From: Vicinamibacterales bacterium
GTDB lineage: Bacteria; Acidobacteriota; Vicinamibacteria; Vicinamibacterales; CAVVIG01
Direction: 5' to 3'
Length of the DNA: 64,000 nt
Assembly (NCBI GenBank): GCA_035650895.1
Contig: DASRGT010000017.1
Location: 25,130-89,129 of the forward strand
Positions within the stretch are counted from its first letter, which is position 1; every line of letters starts with the position of its first letter. The notes under the pieces are model-generated. The model worked only from the letters and a program-made list of their open reading frames with translations, had not been told where the DNA came from and ran no database searches. Positions 1,551 through 15,077 of this stretch are shown here, piece by piece. Position numbers and translations under genes: made by a program.

Positions 1551-2771
1551 CTACCCGATCCGCCACGGGGAGAACCCCCAGCCGCGCATCGCGTCGATCG
1601 CCCACGCGCTGGTCTTGTCCTTGTGACACGACGTGCAGGGGTTGGGCACCGTCATCCGCTCCGTCGCGCCCGGCGTGATGAATCGGAACGTGTGCGCGCG
1701 GACGTTGATGTCCGCGATCGTCTGCTCGATCTGCGGCATGTGGCAGGCGACGCACTGGCTGCCGGCCGATCCCGCGGCGTGATGCGTGTGCTGCTCGATC
1801 GTCGCCGCGTGCGGACCGTTCGGCGACTTCGGTCCGTGGCACTGCAGGCAGACGCGATCGGCGGGCGCGCGCAGGTCGGCGTTGTTCGCCGTTCCGTGGA
1901 CGTCGTGGCAGTTGAAGCAGGTGACGCCCCGCTCGTACATCCGGCTCGAGGAGAAGTCGTTCCCTTGCATTCGGTTCTTGTGGGCCGTGCCGTCGGCGAA
2001 ATACAGGAAGTCCTGCTTCCCGAGCTCGGGCGGATCGAGGCGCCAGTAGTCGCTCAGGCGCGAAGTGGGCGTCACCTCGAATCCGACCGCCCAGTCGTAA
2101 TAGCGCCCCTCGATCGGGTTCTTCAGCGGCTGCCCCTGCGAGTGGCACTGGATGCACACGTCGTTGGCGCGCACCGGATCGAGCCGGGCCGGGTTGACGA
2201 TGTTCGCGCGCGTCGGCGTCGCGACATGGTCGGCGCCGGGGCCGTGGCACTTCTCGCAGCCGACGTTCCACTCCGACGGCGTCTTCGTCCGCACGTCGTA
2301 GTTGATCGAGTGGCAGCCGTCGCACGTCGGCCCGGTCGGCCGCTGCATGTTGTCGTCGGGGTAGTGCGCCACCCACCAGTCGGTGTTCGGCGCAACCTTG
2401 TACGGCCGCCAGATCCGGTGCGCGACGTCCCACTGCGCGCCCAGCGGGAAATAGTCGTCGCCCACCTTCGTGAAGTAGCGCTGCTTCCACTTGCTGCCGT
2501 AGACGAACGCGACGTCCGCCGCCGTGAACGTGACGAGCGGATCGGGCTTCGACAGGTCCGGCAGAATCGCGTCGGGATGCGTCTTCGGGTCGCGGACGAC
2601 GTTCGCCATCCGCGTCTTCGTCCAGCGGCTGTACTGATCGGCGTGGCAGCTCCGGCACTGTGCCGATCCGACGTACCGGTTGGCGGCGGGCGCCGCCGGC
2701 GCCTGCGCCCACAGGACCGCCGCGCACCACGGCACAACGCCGAGCGCCAGGACCGTCAGCGATCGACCCAT
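1551..2771 (-). CDS. Exported multihaem c-type cytochrome (8 CxxCH motifs)
   Basis: ORF 1551..2771. Signal peptide MGRSLTVLALGVVPWCAAVLWAQA. Haem motifs: CRSCH, CDGCH, CEKCH, CIQCH, CFNCH, CLQCH, CVACH, CTSCH. Confidence 0.85.
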   Translation of the reverse strand: MGRSLTVLALGVVPWCAAVLWAQAPAAPAANRYVGSAQCRSCHADQYSRWTKTRMANVVRDPKTHPDAILPDLSKPDPLVTFTAADVAFVYGSKWKQRYFTKVGDDYFPLGAQWDVAHRIWRPYKVAPNTDWWVAHYPDDNMQRPTGPTCDGCHSINYDVRTKTPSEWNVGCEKCHGPGADHVATPTRANIVNPARLDPVRANDVCIQCHSQGQPLKNPIEGRYYDWAVGFEVTPTSRLSDYWRLDPPELGKQDFLYFADGTAHKNRMQGNDFSSSRMYERGVTCFNCHDVHGTANNADLRAPADRVCLQCHGPKSPNGPHAATIEQHTHHAAGSAGSQCVACHMPQIEQTIADINVRAHTFRFITPGATERMTVPNPCTSCHKDKTSAWAIDAMRGWGFSPWRIG

Positions 2772-2777
2772 GGCGAG

Positions 2778-3617
2778 CTACTTCCCGGCCGCGACCTGGT
2801 CGACGATGCGCCGCGCGATCGGCAGGCTGACGCCGCAGGTGGGATCGTCGACGCGGCACCGTGCGATCGTCAGATCGCAGCCGCACGTGCACGACTCGGC
2901 GTTCAGCTTCTCGAGCGTCTGCCGCCGCTTCGCGGGCGGCAGTCTGGCCAGATCGACGCCCGGAATCTCGAGCGCCTGCGCGTTCGGCCCGAGCTCCAGC
3001 TTCTGCGTCTGCTCGACCTGCTCGATCCGCGCGTTGACCGGCAGGCCCGCCAGCGCGCGCGTTTCCTGCTCGGTCGTCGCGGCGTTCAGCATGCCGACGT
3101 GCTTCTGCACGATGCGCCCCTCGCGGTCGATCACGAACGAGGTCGGCAGCGCCGCGATCCCCGGGAACAGCTTCTCGAGCTCGGGCGACGTCATCGCGAT
3201 CGGGTAGTTCATGTGGTGGTCGGCGGCGTATTTCCGCACGACCGGCGGACCGTCTTCGTCCTCGGAGATGCCGATGATCTGCAGCTGGTCGCGGTACTTC
3301 TCCTGCAGCGCGATCAGATCGGGAATCTCCGCGCGGCAGGGCGGACACCACGTCGCCCAGAAGTTCACGATGGTGACCTTGCCCTTGAACGTGTCGAGCG
3401 AGATCTCGCGGTCGTCGATCGTCCGGACGGTGAACGGCTTCGCCGCCGCGGGGTTCTTGAAGAACCGCAGCGTGCCCGACGACGTGGCCGCCGCGCTTCC
3501 CGGTTCGGCGGCCGCCGCAACGCCGTCGCCGGCGTGCTGGAACTGCCGCTCGGCCAGCCACACGGCGGCGACGACGATCAGCACGACACCGATGGCGAGC
3601 GCGCGGCGCGGGGTCAT
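2778..3617 (-). CDS. TlpA/ResA-like thiol:disulfide oxidoreductase with a Cys-rich C-terminal extension
   Basis: Internal ATG (MTPRRALAIGVVLIVVAAV, membrane anchor) of ORF 2778..3821. Thioredoxin motif FWATWCPPC. Tail contains CTCGC..C..C. Only 6 nt upstream of the cytochrome gene. Confidence 0.85.
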   Translation of the reverse strand: MTPRRALAIGVVLIVVAAVWLAERQFQHAGDGVAAAAEPGSAAATSSGTLRFFKNPAAAKPFTVRTIDDREISLDTFKGKVTIVNFWATWCPPCRAEIPDLIALQEKYRDQLQIIGISEDEDGPPVVRKYAADHHMNYPIAMTSPELEKLFPGIAALPTSFVIDREGRIVQKHVGMLNAATTEQETRALAGLPVNARIEQVEQTQKLELGPNAQALEIPGVDLARLPPAKRRQTLEKLNAESCTCGCDLTIARCRVDDPTCGVSLPIARRIVDQVAAGK

Positions 3618-8745: not shown

Positions 8746-11160
8746 ATGGCCGATCTCCGCTACGCCTTCCGCATGCTGCGCAAGCAGCCGATCTTCACGA
8801 TCGTCGCCGTGCTGACGCTCGCGCTCGGGATCGGCGCCAATACCGCCATCTTCAGCCTCTTTTACCAGATCCTGCTGAGGCCGCTGCCGTACGCGCAGGC
8901 CGACCGGCTGGTGATGGTGTGGAACAGCTATCCGGGCAGCAACCTGCTCCAGGCCTCGGTCTCCATTCCCGACTACCTCGAGCGGAAGACCCAGGCGCGG
9001 TCGCTCGAAGACGCCGCGCTGATCACCGTCCGGAACGCGAATCTCAACGAGGGCGGCGTGCCCGAGCAGGTGCGCGCCGCGGCGGTGACGCCGTCGTTCT
9101 TCTCGACGATCGGCCGCGCGCCCGCGATCGGCCGCGCGTTCACCGAGGCCGATGCGACGCCGGATGCCGATCGGTTCGCCGTGCTGATGTATGGCCTGTG
9201 GGCGTCGCACTACGGGTCGGATCCGTCGATCGTCGGGCGCGACATCCGCGTCAACGGCGAGGCGTATCGCGTCGTCGGCGTGATGCCGGCGGACTTCGAA
9301 GTGCCGGCGCGCGACGTCGCGATGCTGGTGCCGTTCGCCTTCACGCCGGCGCAGATGTCCGACAACGGCCGCGGCAACGAGTTCAGCACGATGGTCGCGC
9401 GGCTGCGGCCCGGCGCGACGCTCCAGACGGCGAAGGCGGACTTCGACGCGATCATCGCGCGCAACAGCGCGCGGCTGCCCGCGCTGCGCGGCTTCTGGCA
9501 GACCGCCGGATTCACCGCCTATGCGATCGGACTTCGCGACCAGATCGTCGGCGACGTGCGCACGCCGCTCTACATCCTGCAGATCGGGGTCGTCCTCGTG
9601 CTCCTGATTGCGTGCGCGAACGTGGCGAACCTGCTGATGATGCGCGCCACGGGCCGCCTGCGCGAGCTCGCGATTCGCGGCGCGCTCGGCGCCGCCAGGC
9701 GGCGGATCGTCTCGCAGCTGCTCGTGGAAGGGCTCGTGCTGGCGGCGATGGGCGCGGTGGGTGGACTCGCCGTCGGCTACGCGGGCCTGCACGCGCTGAT
9801 CGCGCTGAGCACGACCCGAATCCCCGGCTCGCCGCACGCCGCGCTGCACCCGCCGGTGCTGCTGTTCACGATGGCGCTCGCCCTCGTCACCGGCATCGTG
9901 TTCGGCATCGCCCCGTCGCTGACGGTGCTGCGCGGGAACACGGCGGCGTTCCTCAAGGACGACAGCGCCCGCGGCACGGCCGGCCGCGGCACCGGCGCCA
10001 CGCGTGCGGCGCTCGTCGTCGTCGAAACCGCGTTTGCGGTGATGCTGCTCATCGGCGCCGGCCTGACGATTCGCAGCTTCGCGCGGCTGCAGCGCGTCGA
10101 TCCGGGCTTCGCGCCCGAGAACGTCCTCACCGCCCAGGTGGCGCTGCCCGCAACGCGGTATCCGGATGTCGCCGCGCGCGGCGCGTTCTGGACGCGGCTG
10201 GTCGACCGCGTGCGCGCGATTCCCGGCGTGGTCGCCGTCGGCGCGACCTCCAACGTGCCGTTCAACGGCATGGTCGGATCGGGGTCCTACTCGATCGTCG
10301 GCCGGACGATCGCGGCCGACGAAGCGGCGCCGCACGGCCGCCAGGAGGTCGTCGGCGGCGACTACTTCCGCGCGATGCACATCCCGCTCGTCAGCGGCCG
10401 CGTCTTCAACGACGGCGACGTCGCGTCGGCGCCGCGCGTCTGCGTCATCGACGCGTACCTCGTGCAGAAGTACTTCCAGCATCAGAACCCGCTCGGGCAG
10501 CAGATTCAGAACGGCCAGACCTACACGATTGTCGGCGTGGTGGGCTCGATCAACAGCATCGATCTCGGTCAACCGGTCACCAAGGAGCGCATCTACTACG
10601 CGGCGGCGCAGCGCGCGCCGCAGGCGATGGGCCTGGTGGTGAAGACCGCGATGGATCCGCTCACGCTCGTCACGCCCGTGCGCGCGGCGCTGCAGGCGAT
10701 CGATCCCGAGCAGCCGATGGCCGACGTGCGGACGATGGACGAATGGATCGCGCGGTCGCTCGAGACGCGGCGCGCGCCGACGACGCTGCTCGCGGTGTTC
10801 GGCGCGGTGGCGCTCGCGCTGTCGGCGATCGGGATCTACGGCGTCATCGCGTTCGGCGTCGCCCAGCGGGCGCGCGAGTTCGGCATCCGCCACGCGCTCG
10901 GCGCCGACGGCGGGACGATTCTCGCGCTCGTGCTCTCGGAAGGCATGCGGACCGCCGGCCTCGGCGTCGCGCTCGGCCTGGCCGGCGCCTTCGCGTCGAC
11001 GCGCGCGCTGGACTCGCTGCTCTTCGGCGTGACGACGCACGATCCCGCGGTGTTCGCCGCGGTGGCGGCGATGCTGCTGGCGGTCGCCGCGGCCGCGTGC
11101 TACGTGCCCGCCCGGCGCGCGACGAGCGTCGATCCGATGGTGGTCCTGCGCGAGTCGTAA
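8746..11160 (+). CDS. ADOP-type (MacB/FtsX-like, duplicated) ABC permease, no adjacent PadR
   Basis: ORF 8746..11160. N-terminus MADLRYAFRMLRKQPIFTIVAVLTLALGIGANTAIF. Two FtsX-like 4-TM blocks. C-terminus YVPARRATSVDPMVVLRES. Confidence 0.85.
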   Translation: MADLRYAFRMLRKQPIFTIVAVLTLALGIGANTAIFSLFYQILLRPLPYAQADRLVMVWNSYPGSNLLQASVSIPDYLERKTQARSLEDAALITVRNANLNEGGVPEQVRAAAVTPSFFSTIGRAPAIGRAFTEADATPDADRFAVLMYGLWASHYGSDPSIVGRDIRVNGEAYRVVGVMPADFEVPARDVAMLVPFAFTPAQMSDNGRGNEFSTMVARLRPGATLQTAKADFDAIIARNSARLPALRGFWQTAGFTAYAIGLRDQIVGDVRTPLYILQIGVVLVLLIACANVANLLMMRATGRLRELAIRGALGAARRRIVSQLLVEGLVLAAMGAVGGLAVGYAGLHALIALSTTRIPGSPHAALHPPVLLFTMALALVTGIVFGIAPSLTVLRGNTAAFLKDDSARGTAGRGTGATRAALVVVETAFAVMLLIGAGLTIRSFARLQRVDPGFAPENVLTAQVALPATRYPDVAARGAFWTRLVDRVRAIPGVVAVGATSNVPFNGMVGSGSYSIVGRTIAADEAAPHGRQEVVGGDYFRAMHIPLVSGRVFNDGDVASAPRVCVIDAYLVQKYFQHQNPLGQQIQNGQTYTIVGVVGSINSIDLGQPVTKERIYYAAAQRAPQAMGLVVKTAMDPLTLVTPVRAALQAIDPEQPMADVRTMDEWIARSLETRRAPTTLLAVFGAVALALSAIGIYGVIAFGVAQRAREFGIRHALGADGGTILALVLSEGMRTAGLGVALGLAGAFASTRALDSLLFGVTTHDPAVFAAVAAMLLAVAAAACYVPARRATSVDPMVVLRES

Positions 11161-11162
11161 CG

Positions 11163-11230
11163 GGTACCTGGCACGTACCTGGTACGTACCAGGTACGTAC
11201 CTGGCACGTACCTGGCACGTACCAGGTACC
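11163..11230. repeat. GTAC-rich tandem/palindromic repeat: six 11-bp units GTACC(T/A)GG(C/T)AC, equivalent to two 33-bp units, flanked by GGTACC
   Basis: Read directly. Units start at 11164, 11175, 11186, 11197, 11208 and 11219. Segment 11175..11196 is a perfect 22-bp palindrome. The repeat fills the gap between convergent genes. Confidence 0.9.
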
Positions 11231-11233
11231 GCG

Positions 11234-12493
11234 TCAGCGCGGACCGGCGGTCGCGGTCGCAGGCTCGGCCAGCAGCTGCTCGGTCAGCTCGCGCAGCTCC
11301 TTCTTCAGCCGCACGTGCTCCTCGCCGGTCGCCGGGCTCGCGAAGCCGGCGTGCACGGTGCGCACCTTGCCGTCGCGCCCGAGATAGATCGACGTCGGGT
11401 ACGCGCCGAAGTTGACGAGCTGCGGCAGCGCGTCGGCGATCGTCTTCGATTGCGGCGTCGGGCTCGTCGTCCCCGCGTACAGCATCGGGTACTGGATGTT
11501 GTAGCGCTTCATGAACGCCTGCACGCGCGGACGGTAGTTCTTCGGGTCGGGATCGTTTTCGAACATCAGGCCGACGATCTCGAGCCCCTTCGCGTGGAAA
11601 TCGCGGTACAGCTCGCCGAGGAACGGCGCCTCGTCGTGACAGTTGGGGCACCAGCTGCCGCCGATCGCCAGGATGACGACCTTGCCGCGGAACTGCGGAT
11701 CGCTGCTCGACACCATCTTGCCGGTGATGGCGTCGGCGAACGCGAACTGGAAGGGCGCCGTCGGATCCTTGACGTTCGTGTAGCGCGACGGGTCCGGCGG
11801 CTCCGGGATGCCCTTGGCGCGCGCCATGTCGCTGCGCATCACCGTGTAGTGCGCGTTGCCGTTGTAGGTGACGGCGAGCGAGCCGTCGGGGTTCGGCGTC
11901 GCTTCGAACAGCGTCGGACGTTCGCCGGAGAAGTGGCTCAGCGTCAGCCGGCCGTTCTTCCAGTGCCCGACCAGCGTGCCGACGTCGCCGTCGACGCGCA
12001 GGACGGAGCCGGACACCTCGGACCCCGACTGGCGGAGAAACACGTTCCACGTGCGCGTGTCGCGCGGCGCGGTCACTTCGGATTCGAGGCGCCGCATCTC
12101 CCAGTAGCCCGCGACCTGCGGCACGTTGTCGGCGTCGGCCGACACCGCGACGAACCGCTTCATCCGCACGTCCTGCGGCCGCGCGTTGGGCCGGTTGTTC
12201 CGGTAGGTGCCGACGAGCTCGTCGCCCTTCTGCGTGAGCTCGAGGATCGTGTTCAGGAAGTCGTACTCGAACCGGAGGGTCCCGTCGGCCACCGTGCCGG
12301 CCGTCGATCCGATCCTGCGATCGCCTTCGAAGAAGAAGCCCTGGGGCTGGGCGCCCTTCGTGTCGATCTCGAACCGGAACGGCACGTCGGTGCCGCTCGC
12401 GGCGATGACGGCGTCCCACAGGCCGTCGACGGTCGCCGCGCGCATCGGCGCGACGATCAGGAGCGCGGCGGCGATCAGCATCACTTTGCGCAT
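11234..12493 (-). CDS. Exported TlpA/redoxin-family thiol-disulfide oxidoreductase with a duplicated N-terminal beta-rich domain
   Basis: ORF 11234..12493. Signal peptide MRKVMLIAAALLIVAPMRA. Two GxW-type repeats, then GGSWCPNC. Confidence 0.8.
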   Translation of the reverse strand: MRKVMLIAAALLIVAPMRAATVDGLWDAVIAASGTDVPFRFEIDTKGAQPQGFFFEGDRRIGSTAGTVADGTLRFEYDFLNTILELTQKGDELVGTYRNNRPNARPQDVRMKRFVAVSADADNVPQVAGYWEMRRLESEVTAPRDTRTWNVFLRQSGSEVSGSVLRVDGDVGTLVGHWKNGRLTLSHFSGERPTLFEATPNPDGSLAVTYNGNAHYTVMRSDMARAKGIPEPPDPSRYTNVKDPTAPFQFAFADAITGKMVSSSDPQFRGKVVILAIGGSWCPNCHDEAPFLGELYRDFHAKGLEIVGLMFENDPDPKNYRPRVQAFMKRYNIQYPMLYAGTTSPTPQSKTIADALPQLVNFGAYPTSIYLGRDGKVRTVHAGFASPATGEEHVRLKKELRELTEQLLAEPATATAGPR

Positions 12494-14189: not shown

Positions 14190-15077
14190 ATGCGAATGGC
14201 CGCCGTTCTTCTCGTGCTCGGCCTCGCCGGGCCCGACGTCATCCGCACGGGCGACATCACGGTTCGCGGCCTCACGGCGGGCGATTTTCCGCGCGTCCAG
14301 CGGCTGGCGACAAACGTTTACACCTTCGAGCAGATCGATCCGACCAAACGCACGGTGACCGTCAACAACCTCATCGTCACCTCGGAGTCGGGCGTGCTCG
14401 TGGCGGAGGGGCAGGGGACCGACGCCAACGTCGCGCTGCTGAAGGCCGCGGTCGCTCGACTCACGGCTCAGCCGATCAAGTACGTCGTCGTCGGATCGGA
14501 GCACGGCGACCATACCGGCGGCGACGCGGCGTTCGGGCCCGACGTGACGTTTCTCGTCCACCCGAAGTCGAAGGGCGCCGTCGAGCGCCGGCTGCGGGGT
14601 CCCATCGAAACGGTCGCGGACACCCGCGTGCTGCGTCTCGGGACGACCGAGGTCGACGTCCTGTTCCTCGGGCGCGCCCACACCGGCGGCGATCTCGAGG
14701 TGTACCTGCCGCAGCCGAAGATCCTGTTCATGAGCGAAGTGTTCTCGAACCGGATCTTCCCGTCGATGGCCAACGGCTACCCGAGCGAGTGGATCGCCAC
14801 GCTGCGGAAGGCCGAGCGGCTGGCGCCGGCGTGGTTCGTGCCGGCGCACGGCTTCGTCGATACCGCCGCGATCCTGTCGGAGGAAGAGCGGAACTACCGC
14901 GCCGCGATCGAGCGCATCGTCGCGGAAGGCACGCGGCTGCACGACCGCGGCGTCGACGTCGAGACGGCGGCGGCGGGCGCGGTGCTCGAGCCGTACGACG
15001 CGTGGACCCGCGCAGGCAACAACGCGTACCAGGCGATCAAGCGCGTGTACACCGAGCTGGATGGAGGGCTGCAATGA
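14190..15077 (+). CDS. Exported MBL-fold metallo-hydrolase (paralog class of 6044..6937)
   Basis: ORF 14190..15077. VVVGSEHGDHTGG motif. Its stop overlaps the next ATG (ATGA at 15074..15077). Confidence 0.8.
   Translation: MRMAAVLLVLGLAGPDVIRTGDITVRGLTAGDFPRVQRLATNVYTFEQIDPTKRTVTVNNLIVTSESGVLVAEGQGTDANVALLKAAVARLTAQPIKYVVVGSEHGDHTGGDAAFGPDVTFLVHPKSKGAVERRLRGPIETVADTRVLRLGTTEVDVLFLGRAHTGGDLEVYLPQPKILFMSEVFSNRIFPSMANGYPSEWIATLRKAERLAPAWFVPAHGFVDTAAILSEEERNYRAAIERIVAEGTRLHDRGVDVETAAAGAVLEPYDAWTRAGNNAYQAIKRVYTELDGGLQ

Follow-up and report, generated by a model that had tools for sequence, protein, structure and literature searches.

A Spacer-Less Array of 11-bp Palindromic Units between Two Convergent Genes of a Vicinamibacterales Bacterium: A Probable REP-Type Repeat Cluster

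Introduction

In a 64,000-nucleotide stretch from a Vicinamibacterales bacterium (Acidobacteriota; GenBank assembly GCA_035650895.1, contig DASRGT010000017.1, positions 25,130 to 89,129 of the forward strand; hereafter the window), the narrow gap between two convergent genes is filled by a 68-bp palindromic tandem repeat at positions 11163–11230, which raises the question of whether such a repeat is a terminator built for these two genes, a site for a binding protein, or a copy of an element that also resides elsewhere. All three possibilities were left standing in a preliminary description made from the sequence alone. The analysis reported here favors the last, as the array is probably a cluster of repetitive extragenic palindromic (REP) units, that is, a mobile element of the type of REPs and bacterial interspersed mosaic elements (BIMEs), and not a purpose-built terminator. 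It is likewise judged likely to be one member of a population of arrays dispersed in this Vicinamibacterales lineage, within a cross-phylum family having the core GT[A/G]CC-W-GG[C/T]AC. The suggestion of a dispersed REP/BIME-like element is supported by at least 31 further arrays on contigs sharing the compositional signature of the window, and by nine loci where the repeat flanks a gene for a REP-associated tyrosine transposase (RAYT).

Structure and Folding of the Array

The letters initially reported for positions 11163–11230 were recovered exactly. The array proper (11164–11229, no strand assigned) comprises six head-to-tail 11-bp units, each an exact match to GTACCWGGYAC and none separated by a spacer, in the order GTACCTGGCAC, GTACCTGGTAC, GTACCAGGTAC, GTACCTGGCAC, GTACCTGGCAC and GTACCAGGTAC (a-b-c-a-a-c), where units a and b have T as the central base and unit c is b read in the opposite orientation. 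Its division into six 11-bp units, or into two 33-bp copies with one mismatch, was confirmed by unit matching and by Tandem Repeats Finder, which called over 11164–11229 a period of 11 with 5.5 copies (score 99) and a period of 33 with 2.0 copies (96% matches, score 125), both of which outscore all other short-period arrays in the window. The first 33-bp (three-unit) copy occupies 11164–11196 and the second 11197–11229, and the only base separating them, C at 11216 versus T at 11183, would fit three units having been gained recently. With up to one mismatch allowed on both strands, GTACCWGGYAC gave 12 matches against 0.83 expected, all at the array locus, and no further copy was found in the window. 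An identical six-unit array was observed in an independent assembly of the same strain (L115; ENA ERZ27279688), which is 99.88% identical over 13.3 kb, indicating that the array is not an assembly artefact.

Including the GGTACC at each end, the whole array forms an imperfect palindrome (11163–11230, no strand assigned) with two 34-nt arms (11163–11196 and 11197–11230), 88% complementarity and 0 nt between the arms. It harbors the perfect 22-bp palindrome GTACCTGGTACGTACCAGGTAC at 11175–11196, which is the minimal two-unit form of the family and whose predicted fold as single-stranded DNA is a stem of 9 bp closed by the loop ACGT (−7.8 kcal/mol); this palindrome and the 8-bp stem within 11208–11229 were both present as first described. 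Predicted folds of the full array reach −54.2 (plus strand) and −69.3 kcal/mol (minus strand) as RNA, with z-scores of −4.7 and −8.1 against shuffles, and −31.5 and −34.9 as single-stranded DNA, with z-scores of −5.8 and −6.7; the fold z-scores as a whole span −3.5 to −8.1. The array thus contains what is asked of a REP, a short palindrome (~20–40 nt) forming a stem-loop in the single strand. Direct counting bore out the lower GC content of the array (~60%, against 72–78% in the flanks), and corrected the number of GTAC tetranucleotides from the 12 claimed earlier to nine, starting at 11164, 11175, 11182, 11186, 11193, 11197, 11208, 11219 and 11226.

Dispersal of the Array within the Vicinamibacterales Lineage

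Scanning metagenomes for GTACCWGGYAC in two adjoining copies gave at least 119 loci. Among the matches listed, 27 loci on 26 contigs (~0.6 Mb), all from the soil metagenome sample Ga0070741, share the tetranucleotide signature of the window, with correlations of r = 0.979–0.996; as yardsticks, the window's own 3.5-kb pieces gave 0.970–0.993 and the same-strain locus L115 gave 0.995. The Vicinamibacterales relatives L116, L118 and L119 displayed r values of 0.988–0.989 to the window, other loci of at least 5 kb outside the signature group and the known relatives did not exceed 0.97, and shorter outside loci did not exceed 0.953. A penicillin amidase on one same-signature contig has its nearest named proteins in Vicinamibacterales (81% identity), and ERZ27279688, which holds the strain of the window, shares contigs with the JGI metagenome from which the same-signature contigs come.

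The same-signature contigs carry at least 31 further arrays built from the unit types of the window, with 2–9 units and a median of 5.5; the copy number thus stands at one array in the window and at least 31 more on 26 contigs, a count that does not come from a closed genome. Four unit types were distinguished, which include a (GTACCTGGCAC), b (GTACCTGGTAC), c (GTACCAGGTAC) and d (GTGCCAGGTAC), the last being the inverse of a. Closely related orders were observed, such as a-c-a-a-c at L187 against a-b-c-a-a-c in the window, and the 33-mer of the window exists as a stand-alone three-unit element in another organism (L207). The arrays mix both unit orientations, with unit a and its inverse d differing at three positions. 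The 11-bp head-to-tail periodicity and the two near-identical 33-bp copies do look like slippage or duplication, and taken alone they would suit a locus-specific microsatellite produced by replication slippage and having no relatives; this is given next to no credence, as at least 31 same-signature arrays and hundreds of loci elsewhere show that the array is not unique, and slippage alone does not yield mixed orientations with three differences between a and d. Uniqueness to this locus had been named beforehand as the outcome that would speak against a dispersed element, and the array search, once run, found the opposite.

The arrays of this lineage accumulate directly after stop codons. By a crude gene caller based on GC content at third codon positions, from which all the gene context statistics derive, a stop codon lies within −12 to +30 nt of 18 of the 32 lineage arrays, where random segments reach 4.1% (p = 3e-17). 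Among the 14 arrays that could be classified, not one is situated between divergent genes. The extragenic 3′ location that is typical of REPs is therefore observed both in the window, where the array lies between two stop codons, and in the lineage statistics. Two arrays (L190:661–737 and L209:4437–4524) are located just inside the 5′ end of long stop-to-stop open reading frames, ahead of the first Pfam domain of a PIG-L and a PD40 protein, and contain no stop codon in any frame, so that these arrays could be read through or could lie in 5′ leaders. Some contigs start inside arrays, such as L105:1–88 (at least eight units), L144:4–80 (seven units) and L229:3–57 (five units), and arrays of this kind probably break short-read assemblies, leaving the largest ones under-sampled.

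A Cross-Phylum Family with a Common Core

The relaxed core, GTRCCWGGYAC in two adjacent copies, was searched in one genome per GTDB species (596 Gb), where at least 114 loci were detected against 2–6 expected by chance, in about 53 assemblies (at least 53) of at least seven phyla and often with several loci per genome. The family was observed in Alpha-, Beta- and Gammaproteobacteria, Planctomycetota, Actinomycetota (Gaiellales and Thermoleophilia), Acidobacteriota, KSB1, Patescibacteria and a metagenome-assembled genome (MAG) labelled ‘Deltaproteobacteria’; all family matches come from MAGs or metagenomes. Most prevalent is GTGCCAGGCACGTGCCTGGCAC, a perfect palindrome of 22 bp that often has inverted flanks peculiar to the genome, and among the matches listed for the genome set the array sizes were two units (114), three units (22), four units (2), six units (1) and at least eight units (1).

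No counterpart was identified in the reference collections. The 22-mer had 0 matches in IMG/VR; blastn against PLSDB and INPHARED gave no match, with a low-complexity filter that may lower sensitivity; Rfam 15 at a permissive E-value returned only sub-threshold animal or viral miRNA hairpin models (best 44 bits, cutoff 65); a literature search for units (GTGCCAGGCAC, GTACCTGGCAC and others) retrieved eukaryotic primers and motifs and nothing bacterial; and the published REP tables searched hold no GTRCCWGGYAC class.

Insertion of the units into the loops of pre-existing terminator hairpins was also considered and set aside, as flank complementarity in the lineage averages 3.28 of 10 positions against 2.87 in the control, with seven or more complementary positions in only one of 29 lineage arrays. 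Many two-unit copies in other genomes do have complementary flanks, and there the flanks are part of the element.

Several variants of the family have their own surroundings. Perfect DnaA-box sequences adjoin the GTACCAGGTACGTACCWGGTAC core, either on one side or, then inverted to each other (tgtggataac-core-gttatccaca), on both, at L085, L100, L141, L177 (e.g., L177:3189–3322), L186, L195, L201, L215, L216 and L237, on contigs of ~45–50% GC from a Patescibacteria MAG, a Gammaproteobacteria MAG and groundwater metagenomes. RAYTs of subclass 2.1.2 have a C-terminal DnaA-like DNA-binding domain (Quentin et al. 2018), to which these flanks may be linked. In a Gammaproteobacteria MAG, a parS-like 16-bp palindrome tgtttcacgtgaaaca stands directly upstream of the GTACCAGGTACGTACCTGGTAC core in two copies within 430 bp (L054:2098–2144 and 2524–2570). 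The Planctomycetota MAGs L002, L061, L076, L094, L095 and L098 exhibit a related palindrome, GTGCACGGCACGTGCCGTGCAC, beside GTGCCWGGCAC copies, together with irregular runs of TGGCAC at 10–11 nt spacing, which suggests sub-families with a common GGCAC|GTGCC dyad.

The composition of the family bears on whether the array serves restriction-modification or methylation, where the cluster of nine GTAC, two GGTACC and six CCWGG sites in 68 bp would act as a methylation sink or as a target of very-short-patch repair. We consider this highly improbable, as GTAC is over-represented rather than avoided in the window (201 against 84 expected), most family members outside the lineage of the window have GTGC in its place, so that GTAC is not a conserved feature, and we know of no mechanism by which restriction-modification systems create dispersed tandem arrays. 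The surplus of GTAC in the window, ~2.4-fold over dinucleotide-preserving shuffles, is spread through coding sequence and is not confined to the array.

RAYT Genes beside the Repeats

In three cases the DNA between paired repeat copies encodes a protein with the HUH and catalytic-tyrosine motifs. A tblastn search of the repeat loci located RAYT genes at 8 of the 114 loci listed from genomes and at 2 of the 119 listed from metagenomes, of which nine are independent and represent at least four phyla. An array lies within ~170 nt of every RAYT gene found, and the repeat occurs on both sides of the gene at L019 (Planctomycetales), L058 (Gaiellaceae), L068 (Allosphingosinicella) and L223. RAYTs typically number about one per genome, and the loci searched, collected by the repeat alone, sum to 1.68 Mb; ten RAYT loci, all adjacent to the repeat, in so little DNA indicate a strong association between repeat and enzyme. 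The exact unit of the window, GTACCTGGCAC, flanks the L223 RAYT with three copies upstream and five downstream in the same orientation, and is present also in the array immediately following the RAYT at L068 on its downstream side. Family copies thus adjoin a RAYT at nine independent loci, all in other organisms, and the four genes with the repeat on both sides have the arrangement of a classic REPtron.

The repeat-adjacent proteins, none of them encoded in the window, have the motifs of the Y1 HUH fold and match curated models. All match Pfam PF01797 (Y1_Tnp), and scores against NCBIfam NF047646 (REP_Tyr_transpos) were 81.5 and 81.9 (cutoff 80), with 70.3 and 51.4 falling below it; the NHxH and RYVxLNP motifs align across the set except in L080. 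A profile of these RAYTs searched against the PDB had its best match in TnpA_REP of E. coli (4ER8, E = 6.7e-10), with the HUH and tyrosine motifs aligned, while phmmer with a single RAYT gave no PDB match, 4ER8 being reached by the profile search only. Nearest database relatives are 50–61% identical, ~285 amino acids long and equipped with HTH_23 or HTH_28 domains, and the motifs read NHVH, WE, YVELNP and WSS in L068 and NHYH, YVVLNP and WSS in L058. Subclass 2.1 in the scheme of Quentin et al. 2018, the equivalent of Group 1 in that of Bertels et al. 2017, is marked by NHVH or NH[YF]H, W[EQ] or FQ, YIELNP or Y[IV]HLNP and an SS tail, often with a C-terminal helix-turn-helix (HTH); by motifs and nearest relatives, the repeat-adjacent RAYTs resemble this group, whose entry for REPs in the published table is ‘no’ and whose flanking 16-mers are reported to be only weakly enriched.

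The reverse test, in which independent homologues were fetched with the RAYT profile and their flanks examined, gave no GTRCCWGGYAC at any of them. Short RAYTs 65–67% identical to that of L068 are flanked by GGGACAGCTAC-nn-GTAGCTGTCCC, by GGGGACAGTTAC|GTAACTGTCCCC and by GGTGACAGTTACC..., and long forms (~285 amino acids, with HTH tails) by GGGGTCAGAYCT motifs; one of these other palindromes has the same head-to-head AC|GT junction. The general rule that a RAYT is flanked by its own palindrome holds in this set. The flanking palindromes look dispersed, and include GGGACAGCTAC-nn-GTAGCTGTCCC in three to four copies at L241–L244 (gene 2501–3109), GGGGACAGTTACGTAACTGTCCCC at L246 and L247, GGTGACAGTTACC... 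at L245, and GGGGTCAGAYCT at L248 and L249; the downstream repeat regions of strains L241 and L242 are separated by a 28-bp duplication.

A protein-binding role can be weighed against this gene content and distribution. The sigma-54 −24/−12 consensus is TGGCAC-N5-TTGCW. In the array, TGGCACGTACCTGGCA at 11202–11217 (plus strand) reads TGGCAC-N5-TGGCA, keeps GG-N10-GC, includes TGGCACG and fits the consensus except at one −12 position (TGGCA, not TTGCA). A phased array on one helix face for a dimeric protein, or a binding or decoy site for sigma-54 RNA polymerase, would also agree with the 11-bp period, which is near the helical repeat, and with the dyad symmetry of each unit, and E. coli REPs do bind host proteins (PMC2817692). 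Against it, the arrays lie at gene 3′ ends with 0 of 14 classifiable cases in divergent (promoter) gaps, unit number varies freely from 2 to 9, the site in the window is directed at the 3′ end of the convergent neighbor instead of at a gene start, and nothing but the RAYT emerged as a binding-protein candidate encoded beside the arrays. The family is, moreover, abundant in Gaiellales and Thermoleophilia, and Actinomycetota are generally held to lack sigma-54. A phased protein-binding array, or a sigma-54 binding or decoy site, thus appears very improbable. Any two family units in the same orientation create a sigma-54-like site.

Neighboring Genes and Orthologous Gaps

The upstream convergent gene (8746–11160, plus strand) encodes an ADOP-family duplicated permease (TIGR03434, 886 bits) and the downstream one (11234–12493, minus strand) a redoxin/TlpA-like thiol-disulfide oxidoreductase, whose stop codon reads tca on the plus strand at 11234–11236; both serve here as context. 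As first described, the opening unit starts 3 nt past the stop of the ADOP gene, and the last one closes 4 nt short of the stop of the opposite gene. An NCBI protein from a MAG of the Vicinamibacterales (Acidobacteriota) matches the redoxin with 100% identity, and the order of M28 peptidase, redoxin and convergent ADOP gene is kept in relatives with 81–83% identical redoxins.

The orthologous gaps of these relatives differ in content. That of L120 and L121 measures 27 nt and has no repeat; that of L118 and L119 measures 106 nt and contains degenerate units of 8 bp, similar to TGGTTATC, in two runs inverted to each other; and that of L116 measures 327 nt and is bounded by eight copies of YATCTGGT and four of its inverse, ACCAGATR. 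In GCA_035652515.1, the relative's MAG with the 8-bp repeats, no 11-bp unit was found in 31 kb. The array has been inserted into a gap that a relative has empty, and as the orthologous gaps are either empty or hold unrelated repeats, it represents a lineage-specific insertion; the gap between the redoxin and ADOP genes repeatedly acquires hairpin-forming tandem elements. Absence from orthologous gaps had been proposed as evidence against a dispersed element; the array is indeed absent from the gaps examined, but this absence reads as expected for a mobile insertion. The 8-bp inverted arrays at L116:5260–5588 and L118:5272–5379 correspond to window positions 11161–11233 and may represent a second class of tandem palindromic repeats without spacers in Vicinamibacterales.

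The same gap is where a host-selected 3′-end element has to be judged, whether a bidirectional factor-independent terminator or an mRNA-stabilizing stem-loop, with similar sequences recurring elsewhere because the hairpin works well. Such an element resembles the array in being a stable hairpin, here very stable on both strands, between convergent genes and only 3–4 nt from both stops, and it would be in line with the strong enrichment of the family right after stops (18 of 32 against 4%) and with some low-GC members, such as L040, L042 and L059, that have A-tract and T-tract flanks like bidirectional terminators. Unlike intrinsic terminators, where a hairpin is followed by a U-tract, the array of the window has no U-/A-tract, with no T-run after the hairpin on either strand; it is a shared repeat, and its GC content is below that of the surrounding genome. 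Neither a sigma-70-type promoter nor an intrinsic terminator was called within 10700–11700, and the same gene pair in a relative has a 27-nt gap lacking any such hairpin; on these grounds the earlier suggestion of a bidirectional terminator, taken as the primary identity, finds no support. Selection for termination leaves unexplained, besides, an identical 11-mer in at least seven phyla, the RAYT genes flanked on both sides and the orientation mosaics, and the more stable RNA fold lies on the mRNA-sense strand in 5 cases versus 8 against, which gives no support to RNA-level selection through a G·U-tolerant mRNA-sense strand. An element selected by the host for its 3′-end function is accordingly regarded as unlikely.

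One further pair of repeats was noted in the genome of a relative, where coding-region tandem repeats at L251:13522–13728 (18 bp × 11.5) and 14445–14778 (42 bp × 8) adjoin a PEGA-domain gene, with gene calls varying between two near-identical assemblies.

Proposed Mechanism

For the REP-type reading, a route to such arrays can be proposed by analogy with TnpA_REP of E. coli, which acts only on single-stranded DNA, requires the REP hairpin, cleaves at CC^T (type I site TGCC^TGAT; type II within CTAC) and forms a 5′-phosphotyrosine intermediate, and whose strand transfer can build tandem BIMEs (PMC3333891). In single-stranded DNA, for instance on the lagging-strand template, neighboring units would pair into hairpins, which a RAYT, being an HUH/Y1 tyrosine transposase, would recognize before cutting and rejoining single strands at the CC^T found at the dyad of each unit. 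The strand that holds CC^T depends on W, being one strand if W = T and the other if W = A, and the unit GTGCC^TGGCAC holds TGCC^TG at its center. Cutting and joining in register between units could then lead to excision, insertion and gain in quanta of 11 nt in either orientation, which would explain the spacer-less arrays of variable number, the orientation mosaics (a/d) and the 33-bp duplication. A further influence of the hairpin on the 3′ ends of the two convergent transcripts, by exonuclease protection or by U-tract-independent pausing, is plausible, as arrays lie directly behind stop codons; this would be a side effect and not the reason for the array.

A more far-reaching proposal is advanced tentatively, with somewhat more doubt than confidence: that the GTRCCWGGYAC arrays are the missed REP partners of subclass-2.1/Group-1-like RAYTs, forming a cross-phylum REP super-family whose 11-nt ‘double-foot’ unit with CC^T at the dyad lets the enzyme add, remove and invert 11-nt quanta.

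Several observations weigh against a REP/RAYT origin of the array. The assignment of the 26 contigs to the genome of the window or a very close relative is based on composition, sample identity and one protein. The REP head GT[AG]G (Nunvar 2010; Quentin 2018) is replaced by GTAC or GTGC. No RAYT was found by tblastn in the window or in ~280 kb of same-signature contigs, and we infer the RAYT link for the window's own organism. The RAYT of a Thermoleophilia MAG (L080:2422–2955) has a degenerate HUH motif, NRYH, with the first histidine replaced, and may be inactive. Co-inheritance of repeat and enzyme, with the GTRCC-associated RAYTs as one clade, was ruled out by a neighbor-joining tree and by identities, as the L068 RAYT is 29–39% identical to GTRCC-associated RAYTs of other lineages and 85% to that of L084 in the same genus. 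The core recurs with RAYTs only 27–39% identical, and close relatives use other palindromes; the pairing of repeat and enzyme is not one-to-one, and the shared core could stem from convergence or a host factor rather than from common descent.

Comparison with Known REP Systems

The E. coli REP/BIME system with its REPtron (TnpA_REP, 4ER8) is similar to the present family in having short dispersed extragenic palindromes that are often clustered with alternating orientation and reside in gene 3′ regions, and in having copies on both sides of a single-copy RAYT gene, which for the family is observed in other genomes. A CC^T motif (type I TGCC^TG) in every unit is a further likeness to the substrates of TnpA_REP, for which tandem amplification is a recognized outcome of strand transfer. 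The differences lie in the abutting 11-nt units of both orientations with zero linkers, against the L/S linkers and ~35-nt REPs of BIMEs; in the head GT[AG]C, against GT[AG]G; in the two-unit forms that are perfect palindromes, whereas TnpA_REP needs stem mismatches; and in the occurrence of the GTRCCWGGYAC core in at least seven phyla, whereas the known REP families are lineage-specific.

The REPINs (hairpin-forming REP doublets) of Pseudomonas fluorescens and its relatives, which Group 2/3 RAYTs mobilize, resemble the family in having two inverted units that pair into a single long hairpin, a population, probable for the family, of copies within one genome that are similar without being identical, a single-copy RAYT, and presence or absence that varies among relatives. 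Inverted doublets of the family do form a hairpin, but unlike REPINs they have zero spacer, the arrays run from 2 to at least 9 units with the replicating unit undefined, and the RAYTs are subclass-2.1-like (Bertels Group 1). The ‘double-foot’ REPs of RAYT subclass 2.4 (Quentin et al. 2018, PMC6006769) also bear the head and its reverse complement at the ends of the palindrome, GT[AG]G...C[TC]AC there against GTRC...GYAC here; they are, in contrast, long, found in Cyanobacteria and Bacteroidetes, associated with the RAYT signature NH[IFV]H, WQ and YIxNNP, and not composed of tandem 11-nt units.

Significance

The features that set this family apart include the 11-nt ‘double-foot’ unit, the spacer-less tandem growth, the recurrence across phyla and the pairing with subclass-2.1-like RAYTs. 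REP/RAYT systems belong to the most abundant classes of non-coding repeat in bacteria, but have been studied almost only in Proteobacteria and a few Cyanobacteria. The present analysis extends them to uncultured soil Acidobacteria, Gaiellales, Thermoleophilia, Planctomycetota and others. Current REP finders, which look for GT[AG]G with a hairpin or for frequent 16-mers, would miss this architecture, and the small unit with its central candidate cleavage site offers a simple substrate for hairpin recognition and amplification by HUH transposases. For annotation, the family accounts for a class of strong post-stop hairpins, other than classical terminators, in soil MAGs of high GC content. The association further suggests cognate repeats for the largest RAYT group, so far regarded as devoid of REPs, and if the super-family does exist, its enzymes would read a minimal GT[AG]N head together with hairpin geometry, so that REP sequences could be swapped or re-invented.

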